A program made the translations under genes and the position numbers. Shown piece after piece: positions 1 to 18,051 of a stretch of 64,000 bases of DNA (position 1 is the stretch's first letter; each line of letters begins with the position of its first letter). Below the pieces are notes generated by a model. That model had not been told where the DNA came from, searched no databases, and saw only the letters and a program-made list of their open reading frames with translations. Origin of the DNA: a virus; the IMG/VR virus record IMGVR_UViG_3300033273_000513, positions 23,836-87,835 of that record; one strand, written 5' to 3'.

Positions 1-2
1 AG

Positions 3-146: not shown

Positions 147-167
147 CTAAAAAAGTGTAGCATAATG
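139..167 (+). promoter_or_regulatory. T4-type late promoter (ATAAATA) with A-rich leader
   Basis: ATAAATA at 139-145, then actaaaaaagtgtagcataATG. A near-identical leader is at 5668-5696. Confidence 0.75.
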
Positions 168-2117
168 GCTCTTACAAAGGTCACTGGACAAGTTGTAAAT
201 ACTAGCACTGACCTGACAGTTGGTGTTCTGACTGCGACAACTGCCACATTCACTGGGAATGTTTCGGTTGGTGGAACTTTAACATATGAGGATGTAACCA
301 ACGTAGACTCTGTTGGTTTGATTACTGCAAGAAATGGTATTAGTGTTACTGGTAGTAATATAAGTGTTGAGTCAAGTGAAGATAGACTTCTTTATCTGAA
401 GTCAACAGATGCAAACGCATATCTTACTTTTGAGGACACTGATAGTTCAAGTGGTTTCGCTAATAGAATTGGAAGCGTAAGTGATGGACTTTACTTCAGT
501 ACAGGTGGAGGTGGAGAAAGAGCTCGTATAGATTCGAGTGGTCGGTTGCTCCTTGGCACCACGACTGAAGGAAACTCTGGTGCTGATGATTTAACGATTG
601 CTACCAGTGGTAATACTGGGATAACAATTAGGAGTGGAACTTCAGATTATGGAAACATATATTATTCTGATGCAACTTCTGGTACTGGTGAATATGCTGG
701 ATATGTAAGTTATCAGCACTCTACGAATTCTCTACAGTTTGCAACCGCATCAACAGAAAGAGCTCGTATAGATTCAAGTGGTAATTTTGGCCTTGGAACG
801 ACAAGTGCTGGTGCGTTGTTACATATAGAAAGTAACAGTGCAGACGCAGCAAAACTACGTCTTGGTTTTGATTCCACAAGATACTACGATATTTTTCGAA
901 AAAGCTCTGACGGAAGCGGCGACCTATATTTTTATGGCTCTCAGTCAGGTTATAATGGATTTGTATTTGATACCGTAGATGGCGAGAGGATGCGAATCGA
1001 CAGCTCGGGCCGGTTGTTGGTGGGGACGACTAGCGCAACTAAAAACGCTGACAGATTATCTGGCAATGCTCTTGCACTCGTTGATGTTGGCGCTAGTAAC
1101 TATCCAAGCGTAGTTGTTACTGGATATGCAAATGCGAACGCAGATGCGGCGCCAATTATTGAAATGCAAAAAAGTCGTGGCGCTAGCGATGGCAGCATGA
1201 CTGTCGTTGCAAACAATGATCGACTAGGCAGTTTCAATTTTTTAGGATCAGACGGTACAAATTTCATCCGCGCTGCTGAAATTAAGGGGCAAGTAGACGG
1301 CACGCCTGGTACAAACGACATGCCAGGGCGGTTGGTGTTTGCCACCTCAGCGGACGGTTCTGCCAGCCCGACCGAGCGGATGAGGATCAATTCAAATGGT
1401 TTTACAAAATTTACAAATACTGGCTCTTATGTGCAAGGTGGAGAATTTTCTTACCATGAGTTTTTGCATAATATTAATGGTCTTGGCCTTGTTTTAACGT
1501 GCACAAATGCAAGTTATACTTCTGACGTTCTTTATGTGCAAGCCTCAAGAACTGGATCTAGCGCATACAATTTAGCTACTTTTAGATCAAATCTTGGTGC
1601 TGATATTGAATTCAAATTACGCGGTGATGGTAATGCCTATGCAGACGGTTCTTGGAACGGCGGTGGTGCTGACTACGCTGAATTCTTTGAATGGTCTGAT
1701 GGCAACGCAAACGCAGAAGATCGCCGTGGTATCAGTGTTGTTTTAGACGGCGACAAGATCCGCGAGGCTGTTACTGGTGAAGAACCCATCGGCGTTATTT
1801 CTGGTAATCCCAGTGTTGTCGGTGACGCAGATATTGACCGTTGGAAGGGCAAATATCTCCGTGATGACTACGGCACCTACATTCAAGAGGACTACGAGGT
1901 TGAGGATGATGATGGAAACACTATCGTTCAACAACGCCGCAAACTCAATCCTGACCACAACCCTGACCTTGAATACATTCCCCGCGAAAATCGCCCAGAA
2001 TGGGATTGTGTTGGTCTAATGGGTAAAATTCGCATCCGTAAAGGTCAGATCACTGGTTCACGTTGGATCAAGATGCGGGATGTCAGCGACACTGTTGAAG
2101 AGTGGTTGGTCCGCTAG
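165..2117 (+). CDS. Tail fibre/adhesin with C-terminal intramolecular chaperone (Peptidase_G2-like) domain
   Basis: G/S/T-rich; TLTYEDVTNVDSVGLITAR motif; four ERxRI(D/N)SxG linkers. C-terminus GGADYAEFFEW...PIGVIS...EWDCVGLMGK is typical of autocleaving chaperone domains. Confidence 0.8.
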   Translation: MALTKVTGQVVNTSTDLTVGVLTATTATFTGNVSVGGTLTYEDVTNVDSVGLITARNGISVTGSNISVESSEDRLLYLKSTDANAYLTFEDTDSSSGFANRIGSVSDGLYFSTGGGGERARIDSSGRLLLGTTTEGNSGADDLTIATSGNTGITIRSGTSDYGNIYYSDATSGTGEYAGYVSYQHSTNSLQFATASTERARIDSSGNFGLGTTSAGALLHIESNSADAAKLRLGFDSTRYYDIFRKSSDGSGDLYFYGSQSGYNGFVFDTVDGERMRIDSSGRLLVGTTSATKNADRLSGNALALVDVGASNYPSVVVTGYANANADAAPIIEMQKSRGASDGSMTVVANNDRLGSFNFLGSDGTNFIRAAEIKGQVDGTPGTNDMPGRLVFATSADGSASPTERMRINSNGFTKFTNTGSYVQGGEFSYHEFLHNINGLGLVLTCTNASYTSDVLYVQASRTGSSAYNLATFRSNLGADIEFKLRGDGNAYADGSWNGGGADYAEFFEWSDGNANAEDRRGISVVLDGDKIREAVTGEEPIGVISGNPSVVGDADIDRWKGKYLRDDYGTYIQEDYEVEDDDGNTIVQQRRKLNPDHNPDLEYIPRENRPEWDCVGLMGKIRIRKGQITGSRWIKMRDVSDTVEEWLVR

Positions 2118-2121
2118 GTTG

Positions 2122-2128
2122 ATAAATA
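2122..2128 (+). promoter_or_regulatory. Late promoter ATAAATA
   Basis: gATAAATAactaaaaaa about 20 nt upstream of ATG 2148. Confidence 0.75.
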
Positions 2129-2147
2129 ACTAAAAAACTGTAGTAAG

Positions 2148-5100
2148 ATGCCATACATTGGACAGCCACCCGTATCAGGTGACACTACGAAGAGTTTTAG
2201 ATTACTTGATAATCTAGCCTCTTTCACTTTAACATTCGATGCTACGAGTAGTAGTGTTGTTGACACAACAGCGAACACTCTGACGTTTGCAAATCATAGA
2301 TTCGTAACTGCACAGAGAGTTACTTATACTGATGGAGGTGGAACTGCAATCGGTGGATTGACCGATGGAACGGCATATTTCGTTATCAAGGTTGATCAGA
2401 ACACGATTCAACTCGCTTCGAGTGCATCGAACGCAAACAATAGTACAGCTATCAGTCTGTCTTCTGGTGCAGCAGGTGGATCGCACACACTGAATCTTGC
2501 ATTTGACGGCACAAACACTAAGTTCAAAGCCACCTACGGAAACGGAACCAAAGCAAAGATCAGTCGTGCTGGTCAACTTCTGATTTCTATCAATGGTGTT
2601 CTTCAACAAGCACAAGAATCTTCTACACCAACGTTAGGTTTTGGTCTGGATTCTGACTCTACGATTGTATTCAGTCAAGCTCCTGTATCGACTGATGTTC
2701 TGTTTGGTCAGATTCTTGCTGACACCATTACAAACTTTGACACACAAGATAACACTCTTGATGTCTTCACAGGTGACGGTAGCACCACAACATTCAATCT
2801 TTCCAAGAAACCTGCAAGTAATAACGATATTCTGGTCACTCTGGACGGTGTTGTTCAGTATCCAACCACAACTTCTACGTCTAATGCATACAGTGTCACT
2901 GAAAGTACACTGACATTTACTGCTGCACCTGCTGATGGTGTAGCTATTCAAGTTCGTCATATTGGTTTTGCTGGTGCAACATCGAGTGCTGTCACTGGAC
3001 TGTATGGTAGAACTGGTAATGTAACTCTGAGTAGTTCTGATGATGATATTACAGTCGGTAATGTCACCGCAGGTATCATCACCGCAACTTCTTATGGTTC
3101 TATCAGTGGTACGACTGCATCATTCAGTGGTAACGTATCTATTGGTGGCACATTAACTTACGAAGATGTAACTAATATTGATTCGGTAGGTCTGATTACG
3201 GCAAGAAATGGAATCAAGGTTGATGATTTAGGTGTTCAGGTAGGAACTGGTGCGACTGTAGATAGTGCTGCTGCCAATACTCTAACTTTCTTGACGAATG
3301 GTAGTGAAAGACTTCGTATTGACGGATCAGGCAACTTTGGAATTGCAGAAAGCAGCCCATCGACCCATTCAGCTGGAAGTGGGATACCAACTCTTGTCTT
3401 AAAAGGCAACAATGCAAGCTTTACAGATAGAAGTGGCGCTGTTGCTTTTGTCAGTCAAGACGACGGAAGTACCTCAAGAACGTGGATGTACCACGACACG
3501 GATTTTAACATTCAAAGCACTACAGCAACAAATATCAAGGTTCACACAAACAATACCGAGCGTCTACGCATTGACAGTTCAGGTCGATTGCTCCTGGGCA
3601 CGACGACTGAAGGTCACACTAATGCGGACAACTTTACGCTTTCAGATAGCGGCAGTTGCGGATTGTCGATAAGAAGTGGCACGAGTAATTTTGGTAGAAT
3701 TTATTTCTCAGATGGTACTAGCGGAGACGATGAGTATCGAGGAATTATTCAATACGACCACAGCAATAATCGAATGCAGTTTGCGGCTAATGCCTCAACT
3801 ACAATGACTATTGACAGCTCAGGCCGTATAGGAATGGGCAACGACTCTCCTGGAAGTTACAGTGCCGTTGCTGATGATCTAGTTGTTGGTAATCATAGTG
3901 GTGCTCACGGAATTACTATTGCCGCTGAAAATAACAATACAGCATATTTGAGATTTGCTGACGGAACTGCTAACTCCGGCCAACAAGCAAATGGACAAAT
4001 TGCATATAGTCATGCAGATCTCTCGATGAGATTTAATGTCGATGCATCAGAACGGATGCGTATCGACAGCTCGGGCAATCTTGGCATTGGCGAATCGTCT
4101 CCAGACACAACTCTGCATATTGATAGTGGAAGCACACCAACCACACTCAAAATTTCTTCAAACACTGAATCTTCTATTGATTTTGAAGATAAGGGGGGCA
4201 GCGCAAATCGATACAAGATTGGCACAAACATAAGCAGCAATGACGGTCAGTTTGAGTTAAAAGATATGACCGCAAATGCTGAGCGGCTGCGTATCGACAG
4301 CTCTGGGAATGTTGGACTCGGAAGAAATAGTGCCTCTAGTCGGTTACATATAGCAACATCAGTTGCAAACGCTTCTTCACCAGTTGGGATGCAGATTGGC
4401 AATGATGGAAGCGGATCAGGAACAGGAGCCAGTATTAGTCTTGGTGCTGGCAACGCAGCAGCAAGCACTGCCGGGAATATAGCCGGGTTTTACGATGGCA
4501 CAGGAACGGCACTATCTTTTAACACTTCTAGTAGCTACGGGGTTAGTGTGTATTCCGAGCGGATGCGCATCGACAGCTCTGGCCGGTTGTTGGTTGGTCA
4601 TACTTCTGCCCGCACGAACTTTATTACAACAACGCTTCAATCACAAATTGCAGTTGAAGGCGGTTATACGCCGTATATTTCAGCAACCAAAAGTACAAAC
4701 GATCCGTATGAACCATACTTTCTTTTAGCTAAAACAAGAGGTTCGGTTGGCGGTAACACTATTGTCCAAAACAATGACGGTTTGGGCACTATCATGTTCC
4801 ACGGAGCTGACGGTTCAACCCTACGACAAGGTGCATATATTGCAGCGTATGTAGACGGCACCCCTGGCGCTGACGACATGCCGGGACGCTTAGTGTTCGC
4901 CACTACTGCCGACGGTTCGGGCGCTGCGACCGAGCGGATGCGCATTCAGAATGATGGTTTATGCAGAGCTTATTCAAACGGCGATGGCTTTATTGCGGCA
5001 TCAAATCAATCAGCTGGTACAGCATTTGCGACACTCGTTGGGCGTCATAGCGCAACATCCACAACAACTGGTACCAACAGCTTTCTTGTTTATACCAATG

Positions 5101-5456
5101 GCAACGTCGTAAATACCAACAACTCTTATGGCGCTATTTCCGACGCTAAGTTAAAAGAAAACATTGTTGATGCCACTTCTCAGTGGGATGACTTAAAGGC
5201 ATTTCGGATTCGTAAATACAATTTTATTGATGGAGAAACCCACACACAGCTTGGCGTTATTGCACAAGAGATTGAGACCGTATCGCCTGGTCTTGTCTAT
5301 GAGACGACTGACCGTGACAACGAGGGCAATGACCTTGGAACAGTTACCAAGAGCGTCAATTACTCCGTGCTTTATATGAAGGCTGTTAAAGCACTTCAGG
5401 AAGCACAAACTAGGATTGAATCACTTGAAGCAAGATTGGATGCGGGTGGTCTTTGA
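2148..5456 (+). CDS. Long tail fibre with C-terminal Peptidase_S74-like intramolecular chaperone
   Basis: MPYIG N-terminus; seven ERxRIDSSG-type linkers; C-terminal ISDAKLKENI...LGVIAQEIE...VKALQE coiled coil. Confidence 0.85.
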   Translation: MPYIGQPPVSGDTTKSFRLLDNLASFTLTFDATSSSVVDTTANTLTFANHRFVTAQRVTYTDGGGTAIGGLTDGTAYFVIKVDQNTIQLASSASNANNSTAISLSSGAAGGSHTLNLAFDGTNTKFKATYGNGTKAKISRAGQLLISINGVLQQAQESSTPTLGFGLDSDSTIVFSQAPVSTDVLFGQILADTITNFDTQDNTLDVFTGDGSTTTFNLSKKPASNNDILVTLDGVVQYPTTTSTSNAYSVTESTLTFTAAPADGVAIQVRHIGFAGATSSAVTGLYGRTGNVTLSSSDDDITVGNVTAGIITATSYGSISGTTASFSGNVSIGGTLTYEDVTNIDSVGLITARNGIKVDDLGVQVGTGATVDSAAANTLTFLTNGSERLRIDGSGNFGIAESSPSTHSAGSGIPTLVLKGNNASFTDRSGAVAFVSQDDGSTSRTWMYHDTDFNIQSTTATNIKVHTNNTERLRIDSSGRLLLGTTTEGHTNADNFTLSDSGSCGLSIRSGTSNFGRIYFSDGTSGDDEYRGIIQYDHSNNRMQFAANASTTMTIDSSGRIGMGNDSPGSYSAVADDLVVGNHSGAHGITIAAENNNTAYLRFADGTANSGQQANGQIAYSHADLSMRFNVDASERMRIDSSGNLGIGESSPDTTLHIDSGSTPTTLKISSNTESSIDFEDKGGSANRYKIGTNISSNDGQFELKDMTANAERLRIDSSGNVGLGRNSASSRLHIATSVANASSPVGMQIGNDGSGSGTGASISLGAGNAAASTAGNIAGFYDGTGTALSFNTSSSYGVSVYSERMRIDSSGRLLVGHTSARTNFITTTLQSQIAVEGGYTPYISATKSTNDPYEPYFLLAKTRGSVGGNTIVQNNDGLGTIMFHGADGSTLRQGAYIAAYVDGTPGADDMPGRLVFATTADGSGAATERMRIQNDGLCRAYSNGDGFIAASNQSAGTAFATLVGRHSATSTTTGTNSFLVYTNGNVVNTNNSYGAISDAKLKENIVDATSQWDDLKAFRIRKYNFIDGETHTQLGVIAQEIETVSPGLVYETTDRDNEGNDLGTVTKSVNYSVLYMKAVKALQEAQTRIESLEARLDAGGL

Positions 5457-5462
5457 TAAATA
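5456..5462 (+). promoter_or_regulatory. Late promoter ATAAATA overlapping stop codon
   Basis: tgATAAATAactaaaaa before ATG 5477. Confidence 0.7.
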
Positions 5463-5476
5463 ACTAAAAACCAGAC

Positions 5477-5671
5477 ATGGCTAACTATCATATCAAGAAG
5501 TCATCTGTTCTCTTAGTAGGCACAGATGTATATTATGTTGGGGGTAATAGATGGTCTGACGATTTTGCAGACAGAAAAATCTTTACCAGTGAAACCACCG
5601 CACAAAACACCATCTCTAACACGGATGGAACAAACGGAGGATTCTCTGGCGCAAGTGTAGTTAGCGAATAA
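5477..5671 (+). CDS. Small late hypothetical protein
   Basis: 64-aa ORF with its own late promoter, filling the gap between structural genes. Confidence 0.75.
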   Translation: MANYHIKKSSVLLVGTDVYYVGGNRWSDDFADRKIFTSETTAQNTISNTDGTNGGFSGASVVSE

Positions 5672-5674
5672 ATA
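5668..5674 (+). promoter_or_regulatory. Late promoter ATAAATA
   Basis: Overlaps the previous stop. Leader aaaaaagtgtagcataATG matches that of gene 165. Confidence 0.75.
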
Positions 5675-5693
5675 ATCAAAAAAGTGTAGCATA

Positions 5694-8600
5694 ATGCCTC
5701 TCTCAAGACTAGAGAACTTTCTCAAGAATATTCAGGGCAATGTTATCTACGTTGATCCAAACGAATTGGATGCAACTGACAGCATTGAGAACCAGGGCAA
5801 TTCTCAGACCAGACCATTTAAGACGATCCAGAGAGCTCTTATTGAGGCTGCTAGATTTTCTTATGTTGCTGGACAGAGAAACGATAAGTTTGATCAAACG
5901 ACGATCATTCTTGCTGCTGGTACGCACGTAGTTGATAATAGACCTGGATATATCCCGTATGATTCAAGTAATCAGGCAAAATATTACACGAGATTTGGTC
6001 AAGCAAACCAGACTCTGAGTCCTTTTGGTCTTGGTAGTAATTTCGATCTGACATCACCAGACAACGAACTCTATAAACTTAATAGTGTTCGTGGTGGTGT
6101 TATCATCCCTAGAGGCACGTCTATCGTAGGCAAAGACCTACGTAAGACAAAGATTCGTCCAAAATATGTTCCAGATCCAGAAAATAATGCAATTGAAACG
6201 TCTGCAATCTTCAGACTGACAGGTGCATGTTATATTTCTCAGTTCACTATCTTTGATGGTGATCCATCTGGTAACGTTTATAAAGATTATACAAGTAACT
6301 TATATACTCCAAACTTCTCTCACCACAGACTGACCTGTTTTGAGTATGTTGATGGTGCGAATGCTGTTACGATTAATGACAGTTTCCTGAACATCAGTTC
6401 GACATCAACTGACCTTGATATGTATTATCAAAAGGTCGGTGATGTTTATGATGTTGGTACTGGTAGACCGATTGAACCAGATTTCCCATCAGGTTCTCTG
6501 GATTTCCAGACAAGAGTCGAAGAATATCGTATTGTTGGTTCCAAAGGTCAACAGGTCGGTATCTCCTCTATTAAAGCTGGAACGGGTGCAGTATCCTCAA
6601 CCACAATTACGGTTGATCTGGACGGTTCTCTGACTGATCTGTCTATCGATACACCAGTTCGTATCTCTGGTGTTGGAACTGCTGGATATAATGGTATTCA
6701 CGTTGTATCTGAAGTTGTATCTTCAACTCAGTTTAAGTACGTTGTACCATCTGCACCAAACAATCCTCTGCCTACACTGACGAGTGCAGACGTAAACATC
6801 GAGATTGATACAATCAACTCTGCGTCTCCTTATCTCTTCAACCTGTCGAAGAGATCTGTCTTTGGTATGAATGGTATTCACCTGGATGGTTCTAAGGTCA
6901 CTGGATTCAAGAGTGGTCTGTTAGCACAATTCACAGGTAACGCACTTCAGAAAGACGACAAAGCTTTTGTTCGTTATAACACAACCTCTGGACAATACGA
7001 GGACTACACTGCTGTAGATAACCTGCACCTGGATCCTGAGGCGATCTATCGTCCAGAATATAAGTCTTCGCACGTCAAAGTGTCGAATGACTCTATTATG
7101 CAGGCGGTGTCTGTCTTTGCAATCGGACACAACAACCAGTATGTTGCTGAAAGTGGTGGTGAACTGTCACTCGCCAACTGTAATGCAAACTTCGGTGAAA
7201 ATGCCCTGATGTCTGAGGGCTTCAAGAAGACTGCATTCGGTCCTGATAATGCCGCATACATCACTCACATCATTCCACCAAAAGAGATCACTGATGATGA
7301 GACTAACGTTGATTATCTGTCGATTGATGTAGATAAGACAATTGATGTCGGAACAAATACGAGACTTTACTTCGAAGGATATACTAATCAGGATGCACCA
7401 CCTCCACACATTCTGGATGGTTTCCGTGTTGGTTCTAATTTCAATGATAGACTGAGAGTACAACTGAACATCAATGGAAACGAAGGTGACTTTGTTTCTA
7501 AGATTGTAATGCCAACTGCAACTGGTATCACGACTGATACTGGTGCAAAATCTTATGTTGTTGGTAATGCAGTCGGTGTTAGCAGCATTAGTTCGAATCT
7601 TCTGACTCTGAAGTCCAATCATAAACTGATTGATGGTGAGTCGATTCGTATCACTGCGGACAATGGTTTCTTACCTGATGGTCTGGAAGAGAATCAAATT
7701 TATTATGCAATCGTCAGTAGTCTTGATGCTAACACAATCAAGGTTGCAAGAACTCTGAATGATGCTCTGGACGGAACAGCTCTGACCATCAACAACACTG
7801 GTGGAGAACTGAGTGTTGTCAGTAGAGTTTCTGATAAGAAGTCTGGTGATATTGGTCACCCAGTTCAGTTTGATACTACCAATAAGAATTGGTATATCAA
7901 TGTCTCTAATATCACTGTTGATAACGAAATCTATCCAACTCTTGTTGGTGTTGGAACAACAGCTTTAGGACCAAATACACCTAAGACATACTTCACAAGA
8001 AAAGGTAACTCCAGAAATCTTGATGATTCAATCTATCGTGTAAGATATGTCATCCCTGCAGGTATCACGACTGCAAGACCTCCCATTGAAGGTTATGTTC
8101 TGCAAGAAACCAGTGATACAACTGGTGCAAATGACAGTGAAATCACCACAACATCTCTGACTAATATTGATGACCAAAGAAACTTCCACTTCCTGAGCGA
8201 AGCTTCCTGGAGCAGCAATGTTGCGACAATAATGTCTGAAGAACCACACCATCTGACTGTTGGTTCTGTTGTAAATGTAAACAAGATTACATCATCCAAC
8301 AACACAACTGGTGTTGGTAATTCTGGTTTCAACGGCCGTTTTGCTGTTACAGGTATTACGAGTGATAGAGGTTTCCAATATGCACTGACCAGTAATCCTG
8401 GAACTTCAACACTGAGTAATCAAACTCGTACTGTTGATGACCTGCCAAACTTTGAGAAGAATGAATATTCCAAGTCCTTCTACATCTATAATGTAGAGGA
8501 AGTTAAAGAACACATCACGGGTGAACAGGATGGTGTTTATCACCTGACTTGTCTGCACTATGATGCATCTCCAACAGTAACACCATTTACTGGATTCAAG

Positions 8601-11600
8601 TTCTCTCAACCAGTCAAGGATCTGTATCCTCAGGTTGATAGAGATAACCCAGTATCTGACCCAATTGCTGCACTCAGCCATGCTGAATCTAAACCAATTG
8701 GTAAGGTTGTATCGAGTGATGTCAGAGACAGTATCACCAAAGACTTTGCGAATAAGTTCCTGTTAGAGAACGGTGTCAGTGTTGGTATCACTAGTATTGT
8801 ATCTGATAATGGTGCTGGACTTGCACACACTGCATACCTGACTGTTGAACACCAACTGAATTCGATTGTATCTGTTGGTATTGCATCTTCTGGTATCGGT
8901 TATGGATCTGGTTCTGCAACCACCTTATATGGTGCAAAACTGATTGGTGTTGGTATTGGTAGCACTTCAGGTGGTGGAGCACTTGCTAACATCACTGTTG
9001 ACGCAGTTGGTGGTATCACTGGAGTCACGATCATCAACGGTGGTGGTGCATATGGTATCGGTAATTCCCTGGAAGTTGTTGGTGTCACCACAGCTGCAGG
9101 ACACATTGTTGGTATGGTAACAGTCACTAATGTCTATAATGGCATTGGTGAAGTCATTCAGATTGCAGGTATTCGTTCGGACACAAACAGCAAACTGAAT
9201 GATACATTTAGAGTCACTGCAACACCTGATGCAAGAAGTGTTTCGTTTGCATCGACTGATGTTATTGACTTTGGTAGAAGTCTTGGTGGTGGTAGCAATA
9301 ACATTGTAGTTGGTTCTGCAATGTCCAATGCTACAATGTCGTTCATTGGGCCTTCGATTGGTGTCACTGCTATCAGTTATGATGTTACGACAGGTATTGC
9401 AACGGTTGGAACAGGTAACACCGCACACGGATTCCTCACTGGTTCTAAGATCAAACTGATTGGAGCTGGACAGACAACTTATAAGGGTACATTTACAGTT
9501 CAAGAGAATGTTGGACTGTCTACCTTTACAGTCAATCTGGGTGTATCAACAGTCACTGCTCCAACTCTGAGTGGTGAAGTCTTTGCATTACCTGGTGGTT
9601 ATTCATCTAACGATGGTGCAATCACCGAGGATGATGAGAAAGTTGGTAGCAGAATGAACAGCATGTATGCTGGCATCACTACCACAATGTCTGCTGGTAT
9701 TACATCTACATCCTCTTCGATCAGCATCACCAATGCAACTGCAAGTGGTCTGAACATCGGTGATTACATCATGGTCGGAAACGAGATGATGAGAATCAAG
9801 AATACATCCATCAACTCTGTATTCAGAGGTGTATTTGGTACAGAATCTATCAACCATCCATCTGGAACTGTTATTAAGAAAGTTCGTGTTGTTCCTGTTG
9901 AACTGAGAAGAGGTTCTCTGATTCGTGCTGCAAACCAGACATTTGAGTATGTTGGTTTCGGTCAAGGTAACTATTCAGTCTCTCTGCCAGAGAAACAAAC
10001 CAAGGTTCTGTCCACTGAAGATAGAAAGCTTGGACAGACTCAGAGGAGAAATGGTGGTCAGAACTACTACACTGGTCTGAATGATGTGGGTGAATACTTC
10101 GTTGGTAATAAAGTTATCAAGGGCACCACTGGTGAGGAAGAAGTCTTTGACGCACCAATTCCTACAGTCACTGGTGAAACCGCCGTTGATACAACTTATA
10201 TAGATAGTCTGAAAGTATCTGGTGGTACAGATGGTGATGCACTGTCTAAGTTTGATGGACCCACACTGTTCACCAATAAAGTTACATCAACATCTGAAGA
10301 GGGTATCGAAGCTAATTCGATTCAGTTACAGGGTGATGCTAAGTCTGCAAGAAAGATCACCGTTGGTATTTCCACTCCTGTCGTTGGTGGTTCTGCTGGT
10401 GACATTACATTTAGTGCCAAACCATCTCAAGGTGGTTATGCTGGTTGGGTTTACACATCCGATAATGTATGGAGAAGATTCGGTCTCGTATCTAATGATG
10501 TAAACTCTAATAACTATAGTGTTGATAAACTGGGTATTGGCACCACGAGTGCAAATACTGTCCTGGATGTTCTGGGTGATGTCAATGTATCTGGAACTCT
10601 GACTGCAACAACCTTCGGTAATATCAACACTGGTATCATCACCGCCACGAGTTTCGTTGGTGATGGTTCTCAAATCACTGGTGTAATTGGTATTGGTTCT
10701 GGATTCGTCATTCAGAACAATGGAACCACGTTGGGTATGGCTGCAACAGTCAACTTCAACTCCAATCTGACTGCTGAATACAGCACGGGTATTGCAACAA
10801 TCTCCAGTCCTGATACAAACTACTGGAGTAATACTAACGCAGGTATCAACACTACTGCGAGTGTTGGCATCGGCACCACCAATCCAACCACAGCTCTGAC
10901 AGTATCTGGTATTGTTTCTGCCACCACATTTGCAGGTAACATCACTGGTACTGGTGCTACGTTCACTACATCCACGATCACAACTGCAACGGTTGGTTCT
11001 GCTGTTACAATCACAGAATCTGGTATCAACGCTGCAGCTGGTGTTGTTACTGCTACGAGTTTCGTTGGTGATCTCACTGGTAATGCAGATACTGCAACCA
11101 CTGCAACCACCGCTGGTTATGCAAGCACAGCTGGTATCGCAACTGTTGCACAAGGATTGACAGGAACTCCTGCAATCGCAGTTGGTATTCTTACATCCAC
11201 CGAAGCTAGAATTGGTAGTGCAGTTACGATTAGTGAGTCTGGTATCAGTATTCACTCTGGTATTGTCACTGCTACAAGTTTCGTTGGTGATGGTTCTGCT
11301 CTGACTGGAATTGGTAACACTGCTGATGTCAGAACCAGCACATTGACTGTTATCGGTGTATCGACTATCGGTGCAGGTGCTACATTTACGATCGGTGCAG
11401 GTGCTGGAAACGGTATTGAATTCCTCAATGGTAGTAGTTCTAAGATCAGACTTTCGACTGATGACGGAGCTACATCACCAAGACTGTTCCTGGGTGCAGT
11501 ATCATCGAACACTGGTGCAAAACTTCAGGTAAATGCAAGTACTGGTGCTCTGAACATTGATGCTGATAACAACATCAACATCAGAACTGCAACAAACGAA

Positions 11601-12344
11601 GATGCAATCGTCGCAACCGCAAGTGGTTCAGTCGGACTGTACTTCGACGGTTCTGAGAAACTGACCACTGCAAATACTGGTGCGGTTGTCACTGGTATTC
11701 TGACAGCCACTACATTCAGTGGTAATCTGACAGGAACCGCAGTAACTGCAACGACTGCAATTGTTGGTTCCGCAGTAACAATCGGTGAGTCTGGAGTAAA
11801 TGTAACTGGTGTTGTCACTGCTACGAGTTTCGTTGGTGATGGTTCAGCACTGACTGGTATCTCTGGTGTATCAACCGCAGATGTTAGAACCAGCACACTG
11901 AATGTCGTCGGTGTTTCTACACTTGGTATTGCATCGATCTCTGCATCGGGTATCGTCACCACCACAGATTCCGTTGGTATTCTTACATATCACGGTGATG
12001 TTTCTAATGCTGCACATCAGAGATGGTATCTGGGTGCAAATGGATCTAGTGATTATACATTCGTTGGTAGTGGTATGACATTCACCAGACATGATCCAAC
12101 CTTGTTTGTTGCGAGAGGAAGTGTTGTTGAGTTCGTTAATAACATGGGCGCACATCCATTCCAGATTCAACTTGAGTATCAGAACACTGGTGGCACTGCA
12201 TACAATGATGGTGTTACAAACAATGGCGCGAGTGCTGGAACGGTCAGATTTGAAGTTCCACATGATGCACCAAACACTCTTTATTATCAGTGTACTTCAC
12301 ACTCTGGAATGGCTGGAACGATCACAGTTTACCCAACAGTTTGA
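5694..12344 (+). CDS. Very large virion structural/tail fibre protein with C-terminal cupredoxin-like domain
   Basis: 2216 aa; MPLSRLENFLKN start typical of cyanomyovirus fibres; repeated VTATSFVGDGS motifs; C-terminal HPFQI...YYQCTSHSGMAG. Confidence 0.8.
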   Translation: MPLSRLENFLKNIQGNVIYVDPNELDATDSIENQGNSQTRPFKTIQRALIEAARFSYVAGQRNDKFDQTTIILAAGTHVVDNRPGYIPYDSSNQAKYYTRFGQANQTLSPFGLGSNFDLTSPDNELYKLNSVRGGVIIPRGTSIVGKDLRKTKIRPKYVPDPENNAIETSAIFRLTGACYISQFTIFDGDPSGNVYKDYTSNLYTPNFSHHRLTCFEYVDGANAVTINDSFLNISSTSTDLDMYYQKVGDVYDVGTGRPIEPDFPSGSLDFQTRVEEYRIVGSKGQQVGISSIKAGTGAVSSTTITVDLDGSLTDLSIDTPVRISGVGTAGYNGIHVVSEVVSSTQFKYVVPSAPNNPLPTLTSADVNIEIDTINSASPYLFNLSKRSVFGMNGIHLDGSKVTGFKSGLLAQFTGNALQKDDKAFVRYNTTSGQYEDYTAVDNLHLDPEAIYRPEYKSSHVKVSNDSIMQAVSVFAIGHNNQYVAESGGELSLANCNANFGENALMSEGFKKTAFGPDNAAYITHIIPPKEITDDETNVDYLSIDVDKTIDVGTNTRLYFEGYTNQDAPPPHILDGFRVGSNFNDRLRVQLNINGNEGDFVSKIVMPTATGITTDTGAKSYVVGNAVGVSSISSNLLTLKSNHKLIDGESIRITADNGFLPDGLEENQIYYAIVSSLDANTIKVARTLNDALDGTALTINNTGGELSVVSRVSDKKSGDIGHPVQFDTTNKNWYINVSNITVDNEIYPTLVGVGTTALGPNTPKTYFTRKGNSRNLDDSIYRVRYVIPAGITTARPPIEGYVLQETSDTTGANDSEITTTSLTNIDDQRNFHFLSEASWSSNVATIMSEEPHHLTVGSVVNVNKITSSNNTTGVGNSGFNGRFAVTGITSDRGFQYALTSNPGTSTLSNQTRTVDDLPNFEKNEYSKSFYIYNVEEVKEHITGEQDGVYHLTCLHYDASPTVTPFTGFKFSQPVKDLYPQVDRDNPVSDPIAALSHAESKPIGKVVSSDVRDSITKDFANKFLLENGVSVGITSIVSDNGAGLAHTAYLTVEHQLNSIVSVGIASSGIGYGSGSATTLYGAKLIGVGIGSTSGGGALANITVDAVGGITGVTIINGGGAYGIGNSLEVVGVTTAAGHIVGMVTVTNVYNGIGEVIQIAGIRSDTNSKLNDTFRVTATPDARSVSFASTDVIDFGRSLGGGSNNIVVGSAMSNATMSFIGPSIGVTAISYDVTTGIATVGTGNTAHGFLTGSKIKLIGAGQTTYKGTFTVQENVGLSTFTVNLGVSTVTAPTLSGEVFALPGGYSSNDGAITEDDEKVGSRMNSMYAGITTTMSAGITSTSSSISITNATASGLNIGDYIMVGNEMMRIKNTSINSVFRGVFGTESINHPSGTVIKKVRVVPVELRRGSLIRAANQTFEYVGFGQGNYSVSLPEKQTKVLSTEDRKLGQTQRRNGGQNYYTGLNDVGEYFVGNKVIKGTTGEEEVFDAPIPTVTGETAVDTTYIDSLKVSGGTDGDALSKFDGPTLFTNKVTSTSEEGIEANSIQLQGDAKSARKITVGISTPVVGGSAGDITFSAKPSQGGYAGWVYTSDNVWRRFGLVSNDVNSNNYSVDKLGIGTTSANTVLDVLGDVNVSGTLTATTFGNINTGIITATSFVGDGSQITGVIGIGSGFVIQNNGTTLGMAATVNFNSNLTAEYSTGIATISSPDTNYWSNTNAGINTTASVGIGTTNPTTALTVSGIVSATTFAGNITGTGATFTTSTITTATVGSAVTITESGINAAAGVVTATSFVGDLTGNADTATTATTAGYASTAGIATVAQGLTGTPAIAVGILTSTEARIGSAVTISESGISIHSGIVTATSFVGDGSALTGIGNTADVRTSTLTVIGVSTIGAGATFTIGAGAGNGIEFLNGSSSKIRLSTDDGATSPRLFLGAVSSNTGAKLQVNASTGALNIDADNNINIRTATNEDAIVATASGSVGLYFDGSEKLTTANTGAVVTGILTATTFSGNLTGTAVTATTAIVGSAVTIGESGVNVTGVVTATSFVGDGSALTGISGVSTADVRTSTLNVVGVSTLGIASISASGIVTTTDSVGILTYHGDVSNAAHQRWYLGANGSSDYTFVGSGMTFTRHDPTLFVARGSVVEFVNNMGAHPFQIQLEYQNTGGTAYNDGVTNNGASAGTVRFEVPHDAPNTLYYQCTSHSGMAGTITVYPTV

Positions 12345-12348
12345 TCTG

Positions 12349-12386
12349 ATAAATAATAAAAAATAAAGGGTGGAGAGTGAAACCCG
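12349..12386 (+). promoter_or_regulatory. Late promoter plus conserved leader hairpin GGGT-GGAGAGTGAA-ACCC
   Basis: ATAAATA 12349-12355; hairpin 12368-12385 directly before ATG 12387. Confidence 0.7.
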
Positions 12387-13625
12387 ATGGCAGTAAACAA
12401 GAACTTTGTTGTCAAAAACGGATTAGAGGTTGACACTAATACGCTTTTTGTTGATCCCGCGAATAACAGAGTTGCCATCGGGACGACAATCCCGACTGCA
12501 GCCTTAGATGTAAGAGGTAAAATCCTATCCGACAGTCAGGTTGAAAGTTGGGTAGGTAAATTCGTTGGTATCGTCACAGCAGGTGCTGTGGGTGTTACCA
12601 CGATGACTGCGACTGATGCAACAGTCACAGGATTCTCAACACTTGGACGTGCAAATGCTTCGTCTCTGAATGTCACCACTGGATTTTCTACAGTCCAATC
12701 ATTAACTGCAACTGACATCACTGTCGGTGCAGGTGTCACCATTAGTGGTGATATTAATGTCTCTGCGGCTGCAACGGTCGGTGGTGCATTAACAGTTACT
12801 GGTGCATCTAAATTTGCACTTGATGGAAGATTTGAAAAAGCATTAGAAATTGGTCAAGATCTAAATGTCGGTGCTGCTGCAACGATTACAGGCATCTCAA
12901 CATTTACAGGTGCCGCTAAGTTTGCAGAGTTTGTAAGATTTGAAAAGGACATCGCAGTCGGTTCTGCTGCAACAGTCGGTGTTCTGACCGTCACCAATAA
13001 CACTTACATTGGTGGTAATTTGAATGTTGGTGGTGACATCAACTTGGATGAATTGGTATCCCGTAACCTTGAAGTCACTGGTATTGCTACCATTGGTTTC
13101 CTAACTGCAACCAATTCGTTCACATCTGGTGTTGGTACGGTTGGATTTCTCACTGCAACAGACATCTTCGTATCTGGTGTAACGACAGTTACGCATTTGA
13201 ATTCCACTAACTCCACACTGAGTGGTATTACCACGATCAGTAATCTGAACGTGGATAATATGGAGTTAAGTGGCATTGGTACTGTCACTCAACTGAAAGC
13301 AACCACCGCAACAATCACTGGTATTATTACAACCAATAGTGGTGTTGAGGTTGGAACTGGTATTACTTTATCACCTGAAGGTAATATCTTCTCGACAGGT
13401 ATCACCACAACTTCGACCAAATTAAATGTTGGTCTTGGCGGCACTATGATGACTGTGGTTGCGGCTGGAAGTTCCGTGACTGCTGGTATCAACTCCACAA
13501 GTCCACAATATGTGTTAGATGTTCATGGCGACATAAATAGTTCTAGCGCAGTTAATGTCGCTGGCGTCAGCGTCCTGGTGACTGCATCCAACGATGCCAC
13601 CGCTCTTGCAATTGCTCTCGGATAA
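12387..13625 (+). CDS. Virion structural / fibre-like protein
   Basis: MAVNKNFVVKNGLEV start; T/G/V-rich beta repeats; ends ATALAIALG; late promoter. Confidence 0.75.
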   Translation: MAVNKNFVVKNGLEVDTNTLFVDPANNRVAIGTTIPTAALDVRGKILSDSQVESWVGKFVGIVTAGAVGVTTMTATDATVTGFSTLGRANASSLNVTTGFSTVQSLTATDITVGAGVTISGDINVSAAATVGGALTVTGASKFALDGRFEKALEIGQDLNVGAAATITGISTFTGAAKFAEFVRFEKDIAVGSAATVGVLTVTNNTYIGGNLNVGGDINLDELVSRNLEVTGIATIGFLTATNSFTSGVGTVGFLTATDIFVSGVTTVTHLNSTNSTLSGITTISNLNVDNMELSGIGTVTQLKATTATITGIITTNSGVEVGTGITLSPEGNIFSTGITTTSTKLNVGLGGTMMTVVAAGSSVTAGINSTSPQYVLDVHGDINSSSAVNVAGVSVLVTASNDATALAIALG

Positions 13626-13631
13626 TAAACA

Positions 13632-13964
13632 ATGGCAAACACTTTTAAACTAAAGACTAAAGCAAACATCGGAGTTACCACGGTTGGCATCTACACCGTT
13701 CCTTCTTCGACTACCACTGTGGTTATTGGTATTACTCTCGCGAACACATCTGGTTCGGGAGTAAATGTTGGTGTTGGTGTCACGAGACTCTCTGCAAGTG
13801 GAGAAAATATTGATCTTCTAAAAAATGCCCCTCTTCCACAAGGTTCTGCTTTGGAATTCATGCAGGGTAACAAAGTTGTTCTGCAAGCAGGAGACTGTGT
13901 AAGAGTCAACAGTGACACTAATACTAGTGTTGACGCAGCTCTCACAATCATGGAGATTACCTGA
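13632..13964 (+). CDS. Small virion structural protein
   Basis: 110-aa ORF (MANTFK...LTIMEIT), coupled to the next gene by a TGATG overlap. Confidence 0.75.
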   Translation: MANTFKLKTKANIGVTTVGIYTVPSSTTTVVIGITLANTSGSGVNVGVGVTRLSASGENIDLLKNAPLPQGSALEFMQGNKVVLQAGDCVRVNSDTNTSVDAALTIMEIT

Positions 13965-16129
13965 TGGCATTTACTAAAATTACGAACGCTGGTTTTGGTC
14001 TGACGACTGGAACCTTAGTTGGTGTAGCAGCGTCTTTTTCTAGTACTGTCTCGGTTGGTGGTACTCTGACCTATGAAGATGTAACGAACGTAGATTCGGT
14101 AGGTCTGATTACTGCGAGAAATGGTATTGAAGTTACAGATAAAGGTGTTCAGGTAGGAACTGGTGCGACTGTAGATAGTGCTGGCGATAATATTCTGACG
14201 TTCTTAACGAATGGTAGTGAGAGAGTTCGTGTAACTTCTGATGGTAGAGTTGGAATAAACACAGACATGGGTGGAGCTCCTGCATCACTCTACCCATTTT
14301 CCGTTTACAGATCAACTGGAACTGGTTATCTTTATACAGAAACTGCTCAATCTGGTGCGAGTGCTGGACTTAGAGCAAAAGCAGGAACAGCAGACTTTAC
14401 AATATTCACAACTCAAGGTACAGGTCAATTAGCAATATATGACAACACAAATACCGCAGAAAGACTTCGTATAGATTCAAGTGGTCGCTTGATGCTGGGC
14501 ACGACGACTGAGGGATATAGCAGCGGAGATGATTTAACGATTGCAACGTCAGGTCACACTGGAATAACGCTTCGTTCTGGAACAACAAGTGAAGGTGCTG
14601 TTTATTTCTCTGATGCGACAAGTGGTGGCGGTGAATATATAGGATCCTTGGTTTATAGCCACAACACAAATAATATGATCTTTACGGCCAATGGTGCCGA
14701 AAGGATGCGTATTGCCAGTGATGGTGATGTTGGTGTTGGTCTTGCAAGTCCTAACAGCAGGTTACACGTAAAAGGTGGGAGTGACTCAACTGATAATCTT
14801 CTTTTGACTTTACAGTCAAATGGAGTTGCAAATGATGGTTCTTTATCCACAGGACTTAGATTAATTAACTCTACTTCTGATTCTTCAATTCATGGTGGAG
14901 AAATTAGAGCAATTCGTAGTAGTGCCTCAGCAGCCGCTCTTACTTTTTCTACTTATAACGGAACATCAATTGCAGAAGCAGTTCGTATAGATTCAAGTGG
15001 TAATTTTGGCGTCGGAACAGCGAGCCCTGGGTACAAGATTGAGGTAACTCAAGGAAGTGGTAATAGTGTTGCCAGATTTACGGGTGCAAATTCTGCCAAC
15101 CTTGTTTTCAGAAACGCAACCAGCAATGTATTTGAATTAAATGCAGGCGGCAGCAATGACGAGCTTTCCTTTGGCACGGCTGGCAATAACGAACGGCTGC
15201 GCATTTCAGACACTGGAAAAGTTCAGGTTAGAGGCACTCGTGGTGGATCTTTGCAACCAAGTGACAACGATACGCTTGAGTTATATACATCAGCTAGTAA
15301 CGGCGCTGCCAATACAGGTTCTGGTCTGACTTTCTTTAACAACGACGGCAATGGTTATGAAATAGGCGGCACCATTCAAGTTGCCAAAGAGAATGGCTCA
15401 ATTAATAATACAGCTGGATATATGCGTTTCTCGACTAGAGCGAACGCCTCAGATCCAGCTGAGCGGATGCGGATTACGAGCGGTGGCGAAGTTTTAATAG
15501 CTCGGACAAGCGCAAGTATCAGCAATGTCGGTCATTATTTTCTTCCTGGAGGCGCTTTTAACCACACAAGAAGTGGCGATACTGTCGGGGTAATCAACAG
15601 ACTTGCAAGTGACGGCACATTGATCGGTTTTAGACAAGCCGATAGTCTTGAAGGCAGTATCAGTGTTTCTGGTTCTACTGTTTCTTACAACGGCGGTCAC
15701 TTAGCTCGTTGGTCGCAACTTCCCAGCGGTGCAGCACGCACCGAAATTTTGCGTGGCTCTGTACTAAGTAACCTTGACGAGATGTGTGAGTGGGGTGATG
15801 AGAATAATGAACAGTTGAACCGTATGAAGGTAAGTGATGTTGAAGGTGACATCAATGTATCAGGAGTATTCCAAGCTTGGGATGATGATGACGATACTTA
15901 CACTAATGACTTTTATTGCGCGATGACGGGTGACTTTGTGATCCGTATTGCTCAGGGAACAACAGTTGCACGAGGTGATTTACTGATGTCTGCTGGTGAT
16001 GGTACTGCTAAACCACAAGATGATGATATTGTAAGATCTAAAACTGTTGCTAAGGTGACTAGCACCACGGTTTCTGCTACTTACGTTGATGGAAGTTACT
16101 GTGTTCCTTGTGTACTGATGGCATGTTGA
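13964..16129 (+). CDS. Modular tail fibre/adhesin
   Basis: Shares TLTYEDVTNVDSVGLITAR and ERxRIDSSG modules with genes 165 and 2148; distinct acidic C-terminal domain. Confidence 0.8.
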   Translation: MAFTKITNAGFGLTTGTLVGVAASFSSTVSVGGTLTYEDVTNVDSVGLITARNGIEVTDKGVQVGTGATVDSAGDNILTFLTNGSERVRVTSDGRVGINTDMGGAPASLYPFSVYRSTGTGYLYTETAQSGASAGLRAKAGTADFTIFTTQGTGQLAIYDNTNTAERLRIDSSGRLMLGTTTEGYSSGDDLTIATSGHTGITLRSGTTSEGAVYFSDATSGGGEYIGSLVYSHNTNNMIFTANGAERMRIASDGDVGVGLASPNSRLHVKGGSDSTDNLLLTLQSNGVANDGSLSTGLRLINSTSDSSIHGGEIRAIRSSASAAALTFSTYNGTSIAEAVRIDSSGNFGVGTASPGYKIEVTQGSGNSVARFTGANSANLVFRNATSNVFELNAGGSNDELSFGTAGNNERLRISDTGKVQVRGTRGGSLQPSDNDTLELYTSASNGAANTGSGLTFFNNDGNGYEIGGTIQVAKENGSINNTAGYMRFSTRANASDPAERMRITSGGEVLIARTSASISNVGHYFLPGGAFNHTRSGDTVGVINRLASDGTLIGFRQADSLEGSISVSGSTVSYNGGHLARWSQLPSGAARTEILRGSVLSNLDEMCEWGDENNEQLNRMKVSDVEGDINVSGVFQAWDDDDDTYTNDFYCAMTGDFVIRIAQGTTVARGDLLMSAGDGTAKPQDDDIVRSKTVAKVTSTTVSATYVDGSYCVPCVLMAC

Positions 16130-16165
16130 TAAATAACTAGAAACATCGGGGGATAGTGAACCCAA
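16129..16165 (+). promoter_or_regulatory. Late promoter plus leader hairpin GGG-GGATAGTGAA-CCC
   Basis: ATAAATA 16129-16135; hairpin 16148-16163. Confidence 0.7.
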
Positions 16166-16875: not shown

Positions 16876-18051
16876 ATGACTATCATCAATCAGAAAAGTA
16901 TATCTGGTATTACAAGTATCACGTTTGCGTCAGCAGGCGATGACTTGTTAACGTTCCACAGTAATAATGGAACGGAAAGATTCCGTATTGATAATAGTGG
17001 CAACACTAAAATTACTGCTGGTATTGTTACAACACTGACTGTCACTGGCACTACCACATTAAATGGTAATTTAGACCTTCAAGATAATGATAAGATCTTG
17101 ATTGGTACAGGTGATGACTTAGAGATTTATCATGATGGTAGTCATTCATACATTGATGATTCTGGCACTGGAGATCTAAGAATTCGTTCAAATAACGTCA
17201 GATTTGATAAGTATACTGGTGAAACAATAGCACAGTTTATTGGAGATGGACGTGTTGAATTATATTATGACAACTCGAAGAAACTCGAAACCAAATCAGA
17301 CGGCGTAGACATCACTGGCGAGTTGCAATGCGACAGCTTGGATGTTGATGGTGCGGGAAATATTTCTGGAATTCTCAACCTAGGCAACAACCTGGATATG
17401 CCTGACAGTACCAAAGTTATCCTTGGCAATGGCGACGACCTGCAAATTTATCACGACGGCACGCACAGTTACATTAAAGACGGTGGAACAGGAAACTTAA
17501 AAGTTCTATCCTCAAGTATGGTAGTCAAAAATGCAGCTGATAGTGAAATCATGTTGCAGGCTACTCAAAATGGTTCTGTAGATCTTTATTACGATAACTC
17601 CAAGAAATTTGAAACATTAACCAATGGAGTCAGAGCACAAGGTGGTATCTTATTTGGGTCAGACACAGCTAATGCAAACGCTCTTGATGATTATGAAGAG
17701 GGCACTTGGACGCCTACTGTAACTTCTTCTGGTAGCGTTACAGGCGAAGACGCAAAATATACAAAGATTGGCAATTTAGTGCATGTTTACGGAAAACTAA
17801 GCAGTTTTACTAATAGATCATCTAGCAATACCATCGTGATAAGTGGCTTGCCTTATACAGCTTCAACTAATCAATCTGGTGGATCTATGTTCGCTCGATA
17901 CTCAGACAGAACTGCATACACAGTTTATGTTTACAGCAACAAGATAGAGTTTTATTCGATCGGCTCTGGTAATTTTACATCTTTGCAGCATTTACATCTT
18001 AATAATGATAACGCTGCAATATATTTCCAAGCCACTTATAACGTGGCTTAA
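16876..18051 (+). CDS. Tail fibre-like protein
   Basis: Internally duplicated DDL(E/Q)IYHDGxHSYI...LYYDNSKK unit; LDDYEEGTWTP motif common in phage fibre tips. Confidence 0.75.
   Translation: MTIINQKSISGITSITFASAGDDLLTFHSNNGTERFRIDNSGNTKITAGIVTTLTVTGTTTLNGNLDLQDNDKILIGTGDDLEIYHDGSHSYIDDSGTGDLRIRSNNVRFDKYTGETIAQFIGDGRVELYYDNSKKLETKSDGVDITGELQCDSLDVDGAGNISGILNLGNNLDMPDSTKVILGNGDDLQIYHDGTHSYIKDGGTGNLKVLSSSMVVKNAADSEIMLQATQNGSVDLYYDNSKKFETLTNGVRAQGGILFGSDTANANALDDYEEGTWTPTVTSSGSVTGEDAKYTKIGNLVHVYGKLSSFTNRSSSNTIVISGLPYTASTNQSGGSMFARYSDRTAYTVYVYSNKIEFYSIGSGNFTSLQHLHLNNDNAAIYFQATYNVA

Follow-up and report, generated by a model that had tools for sequence, protein, structure and literature searches.

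The present analysis allows a model to be proposed for the way in which a set of viral tail fibres may be rebuilt from interchangeable parts. It concerns four fibre genes, here called A, B, C and D, that lie within a window of 64,000 nucleotides (nt), bases 23836-87835 of an 87.8-kb viral contig (IMG/VR record IMGVR_UViG_3300033273_000513) with an estimated completeness of 41%. The model, which we consider likely, holds that these genes encode paralogous trimeric fibres of a T4-like phage, that their shafts are built of repeats of the type found in the MAT fibres of Bdellovibrio, and that shaft units and fibre ends have been exchanged, the surviving joins lying in a short motif with the consensus ER.RIDSSG.(V/L)G.G. 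Each of the four fibres would comprise an N-terminal part for attachment to the virion, a shaft of repeats of 72-130 amino acids (aa), a distal tip and a conserved C-terminal domain. The shuffling of modules among the paralogues and related phages is strongly supported by sequence comparison.

All 17 sites at which the first-pass annotation had placed the motif in genes A, B and C are present and in frame. A strict regular expression alone recovers 15 of these, the degenerate sites at 3798 (TTMTIDSSG) and 15191 (ERLRISDTG) having been identified outside it, and an 18th site lies at 16975 in gene D. Cutting the genes at the motif yields units of 72-130 aa, in agreement with the earlier description of the fibres as strings of modules; these are labelled below by gene letter and order, with A4 and C6 denoting tips and D0 the first 33 aa of gene D. 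The 240-nt module reported from all three genes is indeed found at 516-755, 3558-3797 and 14459-14698 (80 aa, 56-69% aa identity), as is a longer RLLVG...DGTPG..DMPGRLVF module in two genes (984-1373 and 4557-4931; 125-130 aa, 47% identity). Because all modules are detectable as paralogues of each other (BLASTP E values of 1e-5 to 1e-12, together with alignment), they are best described as one repeat family with subtypes and not as unrelated cassettes.

A search for relatives of the window fibres returned 4306 proteins at E <= 1e-5 among 8000 scored, nearly all from short metagenome contigs. Module order is not fixed among these relatives, as the modules ahead of a shared tip vary in number and order in nearly all proteins examined (a set of 66 and a set of 120), and the idea of a shared module library is borne out by the recurrence of window modules at high identity in differently ordered fibres. 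Module C2 is 94-96% identical in P0005, P0007, P0021 and P0043 and 90% identical in P0034, in each case between unrelated flanks; since P0021 and P0043 have the same flanks, four contexts are represented besides that of the window itself, and identity starts in one motif and stops in the next. Upstream of module C5, which begins at its own motif, five different modules are found; copies of C1 in P0045 and P0117 are 92-94% identical, and the copy of B2 in P0057 is 85% identical. Fibre ends are recombined as well: B0 (95%) is joined to a C6-type tip in P0033, and P0008 and P0019 combine the first 33 aa of gene D (100%) with C5-C6. A protein of 933 aa from a different sample (P0093, ENA source) carries C0 at 98%, A2 at 100% over 76 aa, a C3-like part at 79% and an A4-type tip with a G2 end at 76%, and to judge from these matches it is the fibre of a close relative, differently assembled from parts of genes A and C.

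To locate the joins, the ends of shared blocks (>= 45 aa, at >= 80% identity in 15-aa windows) were counted between 663 database proteins and the four window fibres, with near-identical flanks collapsed and the motif zone set at -4 to +18 aa of the motif start. Within the repeat region, 45 of 57 block ends fell at the motif (left, 20/23; right, 25/34), against a null fraction of 0.287 (P = 5e-15), and when the ends were collapsed to distinct sites, 24 of 36 still lay in the motif zone (P = 2.6e-6). The proposal that breakpoints fall at the linker consequently stands for the repeat region, but not for the fibres as a whole, as a second class of ends lies at the C-terminal domains. Among the loci compared, the only close case at the DNA level is locus L201, which is 93.9% identical to the window over 14482-14712 with unrelated flanks, and in which both junctions lie inside motifs, the left approximately 23 nt into the motif at 14459 and the right in the first codons of the motif at 14699. 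Three further loci (L008, L009 and L024) are alignable to window DNA from 15191 on, L059 shares the G2 domain only, and gene B has only three relatives in the IMG/VR scan. The 312 loci compared (L008-L319) gave just two high-scoring segment pairs at 86% identity or more over >= 80 nt, and scans of IMG/VR with modules C2 and A2 gave no near-identical copies, the best matches being 68% for C2 and 73% for A2. The endpoints of nucleotide segment pairs among all relatives were set aside as a measure of breakpoints, being dominated by redundant tip-domain pairs and by conservation boundaries.

Public sequencing runs were also consulted, and 20 rows from nine studies contain 22-28% of the words of 100-5500. 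Contigs from four runs, placed on 1-18100, have low summed depth at 1209-1812, 4833-5436 and 14497-15704, a depth that cannot rank gene parts and from which no inference is drawn. Contig joints in these data fall at motifs (3310->14980 in two runs, 14246->14447 and 561->754), as do loose contig ends at 3316, 4597 (19 contigs) and 539; with sides of <= 36 letters at 90% likeness, which may stem from other organisms or from repeats, they offer a weak hint.

The motif had been described as a linker, but its relation to solved structures suggests a different role. In sequence comparison, Bd2133 (8ond) is matched by gene B and by gene C, and 8ojn by gene C as well; the matches to the Bdellovibrio fibre structures fall exactly at ER(M)RID.SGN(L/V)G(I/V)G. 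A profile of 12 window modules matched 8ond at E = 1.1e-11, at three places along its chain, and matched further MAT fibres at 5.4e-5 (8ojn), 0.0038 (8ol4) and 0.027 (8oml). The MAT fibres are described, in the available text of their report, as intertwined trimeric beta-helix domains with conserved capping loops and with S74 or other tips, and are there called mosaic; the consensus of the capping loop is given as V-G-G/N-pi-x-x-P-x-x-x-L (PMC10769870). By eye, a stretch that may correspond to this loop, G.G..SP...(L/I), is carried by B4, C3 and C4, the proline is lacking in A2 and B5, and the RLLLG and RLLVG modules differ. Given that the motif matches solved MAT repeats in sequence, it would therefore represent the conserved start of a structural repeat unit rather than a spacer, and the shaft is read as a series of tandem repeat units related to MAT beta-helix domains.

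The motif had further been reported to be conserved as DNA. The 28-nt identity between 764-791 and 14983-15010 on which this was based is real (0 matches expected in 100 shuffles) and is the longest run between any two of the 17 motif sites, the maximum in 2000 simulations being 27. Two cliques of motifs with a common spelling can be distinguished. Clique 1 (516, 756, 14459 and 14975), from genes A and C, is of an AT-type and shares 23-26 of 27 nt, and clique 2 (984, 4050, 4281 and 4557), from gene B and module A3, is of a GC-type and shares 22-24 of 27 nt. Motif pairs with at least 22 of 27 nt in common number 12, where 1.9 are expected and the maximum in 3000 simulations is 9. Both spellings employ codons that are rare here: ATA accounts for 5% of Ile codons in the window, and CGG for 4 of 79 Arg codons outside motifs, as against 7 of the 15 codons for the first motif Arg. 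In clique-1 pairs whose interiors are unrelated, 36 of 44 codons agree within the first 15 codons vs 19 of 58 in the interiors. A2 and C4 have a 39-nt patch in common (92%) that has the appearance of a short conversion tract, the sequence being dissimilar to either side of it. The cliques and this patch provide some indication of an interplay at the DNA level. Truly homologous modules, on comparison, conserve the motif no better at synonymous sites than the interior (motif vs interior: A1-C2, 9/13 vs 24/39; A3-B6, 8/13 vs 26/47; A1-B2, 4/14 vs 14/34). The term "nucleotide-conserved" is thus apt within each of the two spellings, which are uniform, but not across them.

Codon spelling was followed into a wider set of 66 fibre proteins from 124 IMG/VR loci (L008-L131), which hold 208 motifs, 119 of them matching the core. 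The proportion of G or C at third codon positions (GC3) is 0.58 in the motif vs 0.39 in the rest of the protein, is higher in the motif in 61 of the 66 proteins, and the majority spelling in this wider family is close to the GC-type. However, the conserved columns of the tip domains have a GC3 of 0.47-0.61 vs 0.30-0.39 for variable columns in three of four clusters (clusters 1, 2, 4 and 6; the fourth value, 0.13, comes from three columns), conservation of columns is correlated with GC-ending codons across clusters (Spearman rho of 0.20-0.35), and the interior DGTPG..DMPGR motif is likewise GC3-rich. The notion that GC-rich third positions mark recombination, through biased conversion, was dropped because the conserved tip columns and DGTPG..DMPGR show the same rise; G/C-ending codons at conserved columns may be due to accurate translation in hosts of high GC content or to past transfer. 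Some codon choices are specific to position, with CGG at a frequency of 0.39 at the first Arg and TCG at 0.38 at the second Ser of the 119 motifs, vs 0.07 and 0.03, respectively, at other equally conserved Arg and Ser columns of the same proteins. The AGY and TCN families of serine codons are not bridged by any single synonymous change, and a split between them can persist by descent; this uncrossable split, together with the paralogous descent of the motifs, explains part of the CGG and TCG excess.

The 18-mer characteristic of the AT-type spelling occurs in 34 IMG/VR stretches, of which 27 loci (30 instances) are fibre motifs in approximately 21 distinct module contexts, and it is found twice on one contig in two phage types (L139/L151 and L165). 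On seven contigs (L135, L137, L140, L143, L144, L150 and L152), the same 18-mer specifies RIDSSG within a conserved but unrelated protein (…LVLRSIERIDSSGVRSFLEKRD…). Among motif pairs with unrelated interiors in the wider set, codon sharing is 0.47 within a contig vs 0.364 between contigs of similar GC3.

Several of the observations weigh against the proposed model, or against a role for motif DNA within it. The block ends cannot be counted as independent events or as proven crossovers, several right ends lie inside modules, and a second and larger class of block starts lies 50-78 aa past the last motif, where the G2, S74 and gene-C terminal domains begin. Most comparison proteins derive from metagenome assemblies and were compared at the protein level. 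At motif 14459, the core in L201 is spelt in the GC-type and agrees with the window at 11 of 27 nt, which makes it the least similar part, beside an interior that is approximately 96% identical (hand counts), and it is not obvious that present-day motif homology guided this join. In a test that kept the residues and took codons at the frequencies of the fibres themselves, codons agreed at 357 of 1021 identical-residue positions across the 136 motif pairs vs 343 +/- 25 expected (P = 0.27). Aggregate synonymous conservation of the motif is therefore at expectation, and the claim of general conservation of the linker as DNA does not hold. Between cliques 1 and 2, identity is just 11-13 of 27 nt, which leaves no usable homology; this floor-level identity and the L201 core speak against a universal crossover site, and the linker can hardly serve as the crossover point for all modules, as had been suggested. 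The within-contig excess of codon sharing is carried by contigs with many motifs, approximately half of the contigs lying below the baseline when taken singly and the window itself at 0.35. No UvsX or RecA gene is present on the contig, which is 41% complete.

These points give room to explanations other than the one proposed. The nucleotide sequence of the motif could be maintained because it serves as a joint for recombination, with its spelling selected or constantly homogenised, in which case the fibres would amount to an evolved diversification device. The position-specific choice of CGG and TCG in the 119 motifs, the excess of the two window cliques over simulation, and the variety of modules headed by the AT-type 18-mer in IMG/VR speak in favour of such a joint. 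However, the aggregate codon test is at expectation, homologous modules have no extra synonymous conservation in the motif, the L201 junction adjoins a non-identical core, and the AGY/TCN split can persist by descent alone; moreover, the rise in motif GC3 is matched in conserved tip-domain columns, so that much of the skew is general to conserved sites, and the counts are non-independent, as the motifs are paralogues. We consider a joint of this kind improbable. It is similarly doubtful that the few codon spellings (AT-type and GC-type, the latter near a consensus found in many marine phages) constitute compatibility classes, each kept uniform by gene conversion within and between genomes, such that modules of the same spelling recombine freely and others do not; if true, this would be an evolved, sequence-addressed joint for fibre shuffling that operates without a dedicated enzyme.

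Alternatively, illegitimate or microhomology joins may arise anywhere, with the DNA similarity of the motif irrelevant and only in-register joins surviving. The dissimilar motif core at the L201 junction, the floor-level identity between cliques and the presence of boundaries at other domain borders, namely the starts of the chaperone domains, are in keeping with selection of this type, although it leaves unexplained both the identical rare-codon spelling of motifs that head unrelated interiors in one genome and the A2/C4 patch, dissimilar on either side. The junctions also cluster within a few codons, more tightly than a filter at domain borders would need, and selection acting by itself thus appears quite unlikely. 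A purely technical origin, in which the assembly of metagenomes switched from one phage to another at repeated motifs or shared modules, might be suspected from the short metagenome contigs that supplied nearly all comparison proteins and from the contig joints in public runs, which sit at motifs with short sides in the manner of mis-joins. However, a module found in several contexts requires at least two real contexts, several of the mosaic proteins occur on more than one contig, and the window's own 87.8-kb contig has three paralogues with both shared and unshared modules. The longest motif identity in the window is 28 nt, and the L201 core agrees at 11 of 27; neither would probably be bridged by an assembler at the usual final k-mer sizes. 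An assembly artefact is accordingly very hard to credit.

The favoured model, exchange of whole shaft units and ends, can be set out as follows. The motif, the best-conserved stretch with which each repeat unit begins, would be kept for folding, and whole units, together with N- and C-terminal parts, would be swapped between paralogues and between related phages over evolutionary time. Surviving joins would lie in the motif for two reasons: short patches of identical DNA are available there, and a fibre folds only if it is joined in register at structurally equivalent positions. Exchange may proceed by the phage's general recombination during co-infection, short gene-conversion patches may keep subsets of the motif identical within a genome, and selection would retain in-register, foldable joins only; the joins could be positioned either by motif homology or by selection alone. 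T4-type phages depend on UvsX-mediated recombination, and the homology needed for T4 recombination was reportedly treated by Singer in 1982. Neither a reverse transcriptase (PF00078) nor a serine invertase (PF00239) is found in the 87.8-kb record, again at 41% completeness. As in the earlier statement that no dedicated recombinase is present in the window, no dedicated machinery was found on the contig as far as it is complete. To speak of a diversification "system" nonetheless goes too far, as nothing points beyond general recombination and selection or to a programmed switch.

The principle of shuffling is already in print for T-even phages: according to one report (PMC3157838, citing Tetart 1996, 1998), their fibre and adhesin genes are rearranged through exchange at or close to the motifs that are conserved best. 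The same text describes conserved boxes in gp37 and glycine-rich motifs in gp38, and natural as well as laboratory chimeras whose exchanges are located at such motifs or close by (Trojet et al., 2011; PMC3157838). To the extent of that description, the window fibres are alike in that conserved motifs part variable segments, mosaic joins are located at the motifs or close to them, the phage belongs to the T4 type, and the outcome is new combinations of recognition determinants. They differ in that no gp37 or gp38 family match was found in them by Pfam or PHROG, so that the likeness is one of mechanism and not of sequence; in that exchange involves entire shaft repeats (72-130 aa), drawn from a library spread over at least four paralogous genes; and in that the motif has two codon spellings. 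Whereas the T-even work included laboratory chimeras, the present case consists of natural sequences alone.

Similarly, the MAT fibres of Bdellovibrio bacteriovorus (Caulton et al., 2024, PMC10769870; 8ond, 8ojn, 8ol4 and 8oml) have shaft repeats that include ER(M)RI..SGN(V/L)G(I/V)G, have S74 or non-S74 ends, and are described in the available text as mosaic, with evidence of exchanged ends. However, these are surface fibres of a predatory cell, with a signal peptide and a common N-terminal domain of approximately 130 aa, and the available text discusses the swapping of tips, not the internal shuffling of shaft units (PMC10769870). The phage N-termini consist of a phage-type shared box and a weak match to the T7 tail fibre, and the matches to PDB entries cover the shaft repeats only. 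On this basis the window fibres would share the MAT shaft repeat without being filed as members of the MAT family. Programmed diversification, by diversity-generating retroelements or by invertible segments such as Mu G and P1 C, also targets a host-recognition fibre and provides alternative receptor-binding ends. It differs from the present case, where the 41%-complete contig has no reverse transcriptase or serine invertase, all fibre genes lie on one strand, and variation is between genomes and not within one.

Further comparison can be made with fibres that carry intramolecular chaperones, such as the S74 domains of the K1F endosialidase and T5 pb1 and the G2 domain of phi29 gp12. Genes A and B carry C-termini of this kind, with a Peptidase_G2 domain (PF11962; E = 3.1e-39, 135 bits, aa 484-645) and a Peptidase_S74 domain (PF13884; E = 1.3e-8, 35.4 bits, aa 998-1050), respectively, both above the cut-off. 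As in those fibres, the conserved block in relatives starts at the C-terminal domain and the segment preceding it is variable. The segment between the last motif and the C-terminal domain (1374-1613, 4932-5138 and 15461-15610) is the least conserved part of the fibres among relatives; should the chaperone domains be removed, as happens in known S74 and G2 fibres, this segment would become the exposed distal end. Gene C differs in having no match to such a domain. Its C-terminal domain, of approximately 170 aa, is the best conserved part of the protein among thousands of relatives, yet matches neither G2, S74 nor any other family in Pfam, and is unlike the C-terminal domain of gene A by BLASTP (E = 1.3). 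Many Cys, Trp and Asp residues of the domain are invariant, and its last residues are ...PCVLMAC. A monomer model of C5-C6 is of middling confidence (mean predicted local distance difference test score of 65), and a Foldseek search with it returned nothing at E <= 0.001. The best VIA-align score for C5-C6, Z = 6.7, falls on a small barrel that is also present in the base of phi29 gp8.5 and in the C-terminal fragment of phi29 gp12, and is below the level that the tool treats as meaningful; the match of C5-C6 to the gp12 fragment is weak (Z = 5.9 over 55 residues).

As regards the phage, the contig encodes T4-type baseplate wedge, neck and sheath-stabiliser families, and its DNA matches to isolate phages by megablast are short only (36-237 nt) and all to Synechococcus phages or cyanophages, e.g., S-TIM5. 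The fibres are read as those of a T4-like marine myovirus, probably a cyanophage. Genes A, B and C are annotated as tail fibres by generic PHROGs families, an NCBIfam search gave no match for any of the window fibres, and the N-terminal part of gene B has a weak likeness to the T7 tail fibre (PF03906) at 22.8 bits, below the Pfam cut-off of 25.2. Genes A, B and C share an N-terminal box, 73-80% identical over 102 nt, in which DNA similarity runs longer than at any motif, and genes B and C have 201 nt in common at 79%. The coordinates of the fibre genes, the box, the motif cores and the terminal domain of gene C are collected in Table 1.

Two further elements recur in the fibre island. An 18-nt box (TTGATAAATAACTAAAAA and close variants) lies just 5' of five of its genes (136-153, 2119-2136, 5453-5470, 12346-12363 and 16126-16143), and a longer leader of 41 nt runs into the start codon at 137-177, 2120-2160 and 5666-5706; presumably the box and leader resemble a T4-type late promoter. 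An in-frame 55-nt repeat of the GI(I/V)TATSFVGDGS type is present in four copies in the gene for a 2216-aa protein at 5694-12344. Copies of this repeat, a second element common to the structural genes of the island, are located at 10630-11860, 13318-13372 and 16527-16581, those in the genes at 12387-13625 and 16166-16843 being weaker.

Table 1. Positions of the fibre genes and their elements in the window.
Feature	Position	Strand	Remarks
Fibre gene A	165..2117	+	650 aa; N-terminal anchor, modules A1-A3, tip, Peptidase_G2 chaperone domain
Shared N-terminal box SVGGTLTYEDVTNVDSVGLITARNGI	253..354	+	Copies at 3127-3228 (73%) and 14040-14141 (80%)
Motif core ERARIDSSG	516..542	+	AT-type spelling, clique 1
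Motif core	756..782	+	AT-type spelling, clique 1; overlapped by the 28-nt identity 764-791
Motif core	984..1010	+	GC-type spelling, clique 2
Motif core ERMRINSNG	1374..1400	+	Before the gene A tip; in neither clique
Fibre gene B	2148..5456	+	1102 aa; 386-aa N-terminal part, modules B1-B6, tip, Peptidase_S74 chaperone domain
Motif core, first of gene B	3306..3332	+	In neither clique
Motif core of module B2	3558..3584	+	In neither clique
Degenerate motif TTMTIDSSG of module B3	3798..3824	+	
Motif core	4050..4076	+	GC-type spelling, clique 2
Motif core	4281..4307	+	GC-type spelling, clique 2
Motif core	4557..4583	+	GC-type spelling, clique 2
Motif core ERMRIQNDG	4932..4958	+	Before the gene B tip
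Fibre gene C	13964..16129	+	721 aa; anchor, modules C1-C5, tip, conserved C-terminal domain without family match
Motif core ERVRVTSDG, first of gene C	14219..14245	+	18-19/27 identical to clique 1
Motif core	14459..14485	+	AT-type, clique 1; left junction of the L201 block ~23 nt in
Motif core of module C3	14699..14725	+	Contains the right junction of the L201 block
Motif core EAVRIDSSG	14975..15001	+	AT-type, clique 1; overlapped by the 28-nt identity 14983-15010
Motif core ERLRISDTG of module C5	15191..15217	+	Homology start for L008, L009, L024, P0004/8/12/15/18
Motif core ERMRITSGG, last of gene C	15461..15487	+	
Gene C conserved C-terminal domain	15611..16126	+	aa 550-721; block most widely common to relatives
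Fibre gene D	16876..18051	+	391 aa; one motif at 16975, then a different repeat type
Motif core ERFRIDNSG, single in gene D	16975..17001	+	

Four peptide strings of the motif do not occur in the library of papers searched, and none of the papers listed dealt with the motif in cyanophages. New elements are this motif and this repeat as they occur in a marine phage of T4 type, the one pool of modules spread across at least four paralogous genes, the precision of the exchange unit and the existence of two spellings. The locus provides a clean and countable case of fibre rebuilding by the exchange of whole shaft units, the limits of which are defined to within a few codons, and there are thousands of natural relatives to mine and solved structures for a related repeat. 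From these, natural rules may be drawn for where fibre chimeras can be joined, and the fibres offer a test bed for the old question of whether conserved fibre motifs are guides for recombination or only elements of folding. Tail fibres set the host range of phages, and variation in the fibres of marine cyanophages shapes who infects the main primary producers of the ocean; exchange of shaft units and ends of the type proposed here may contribute to that variation.

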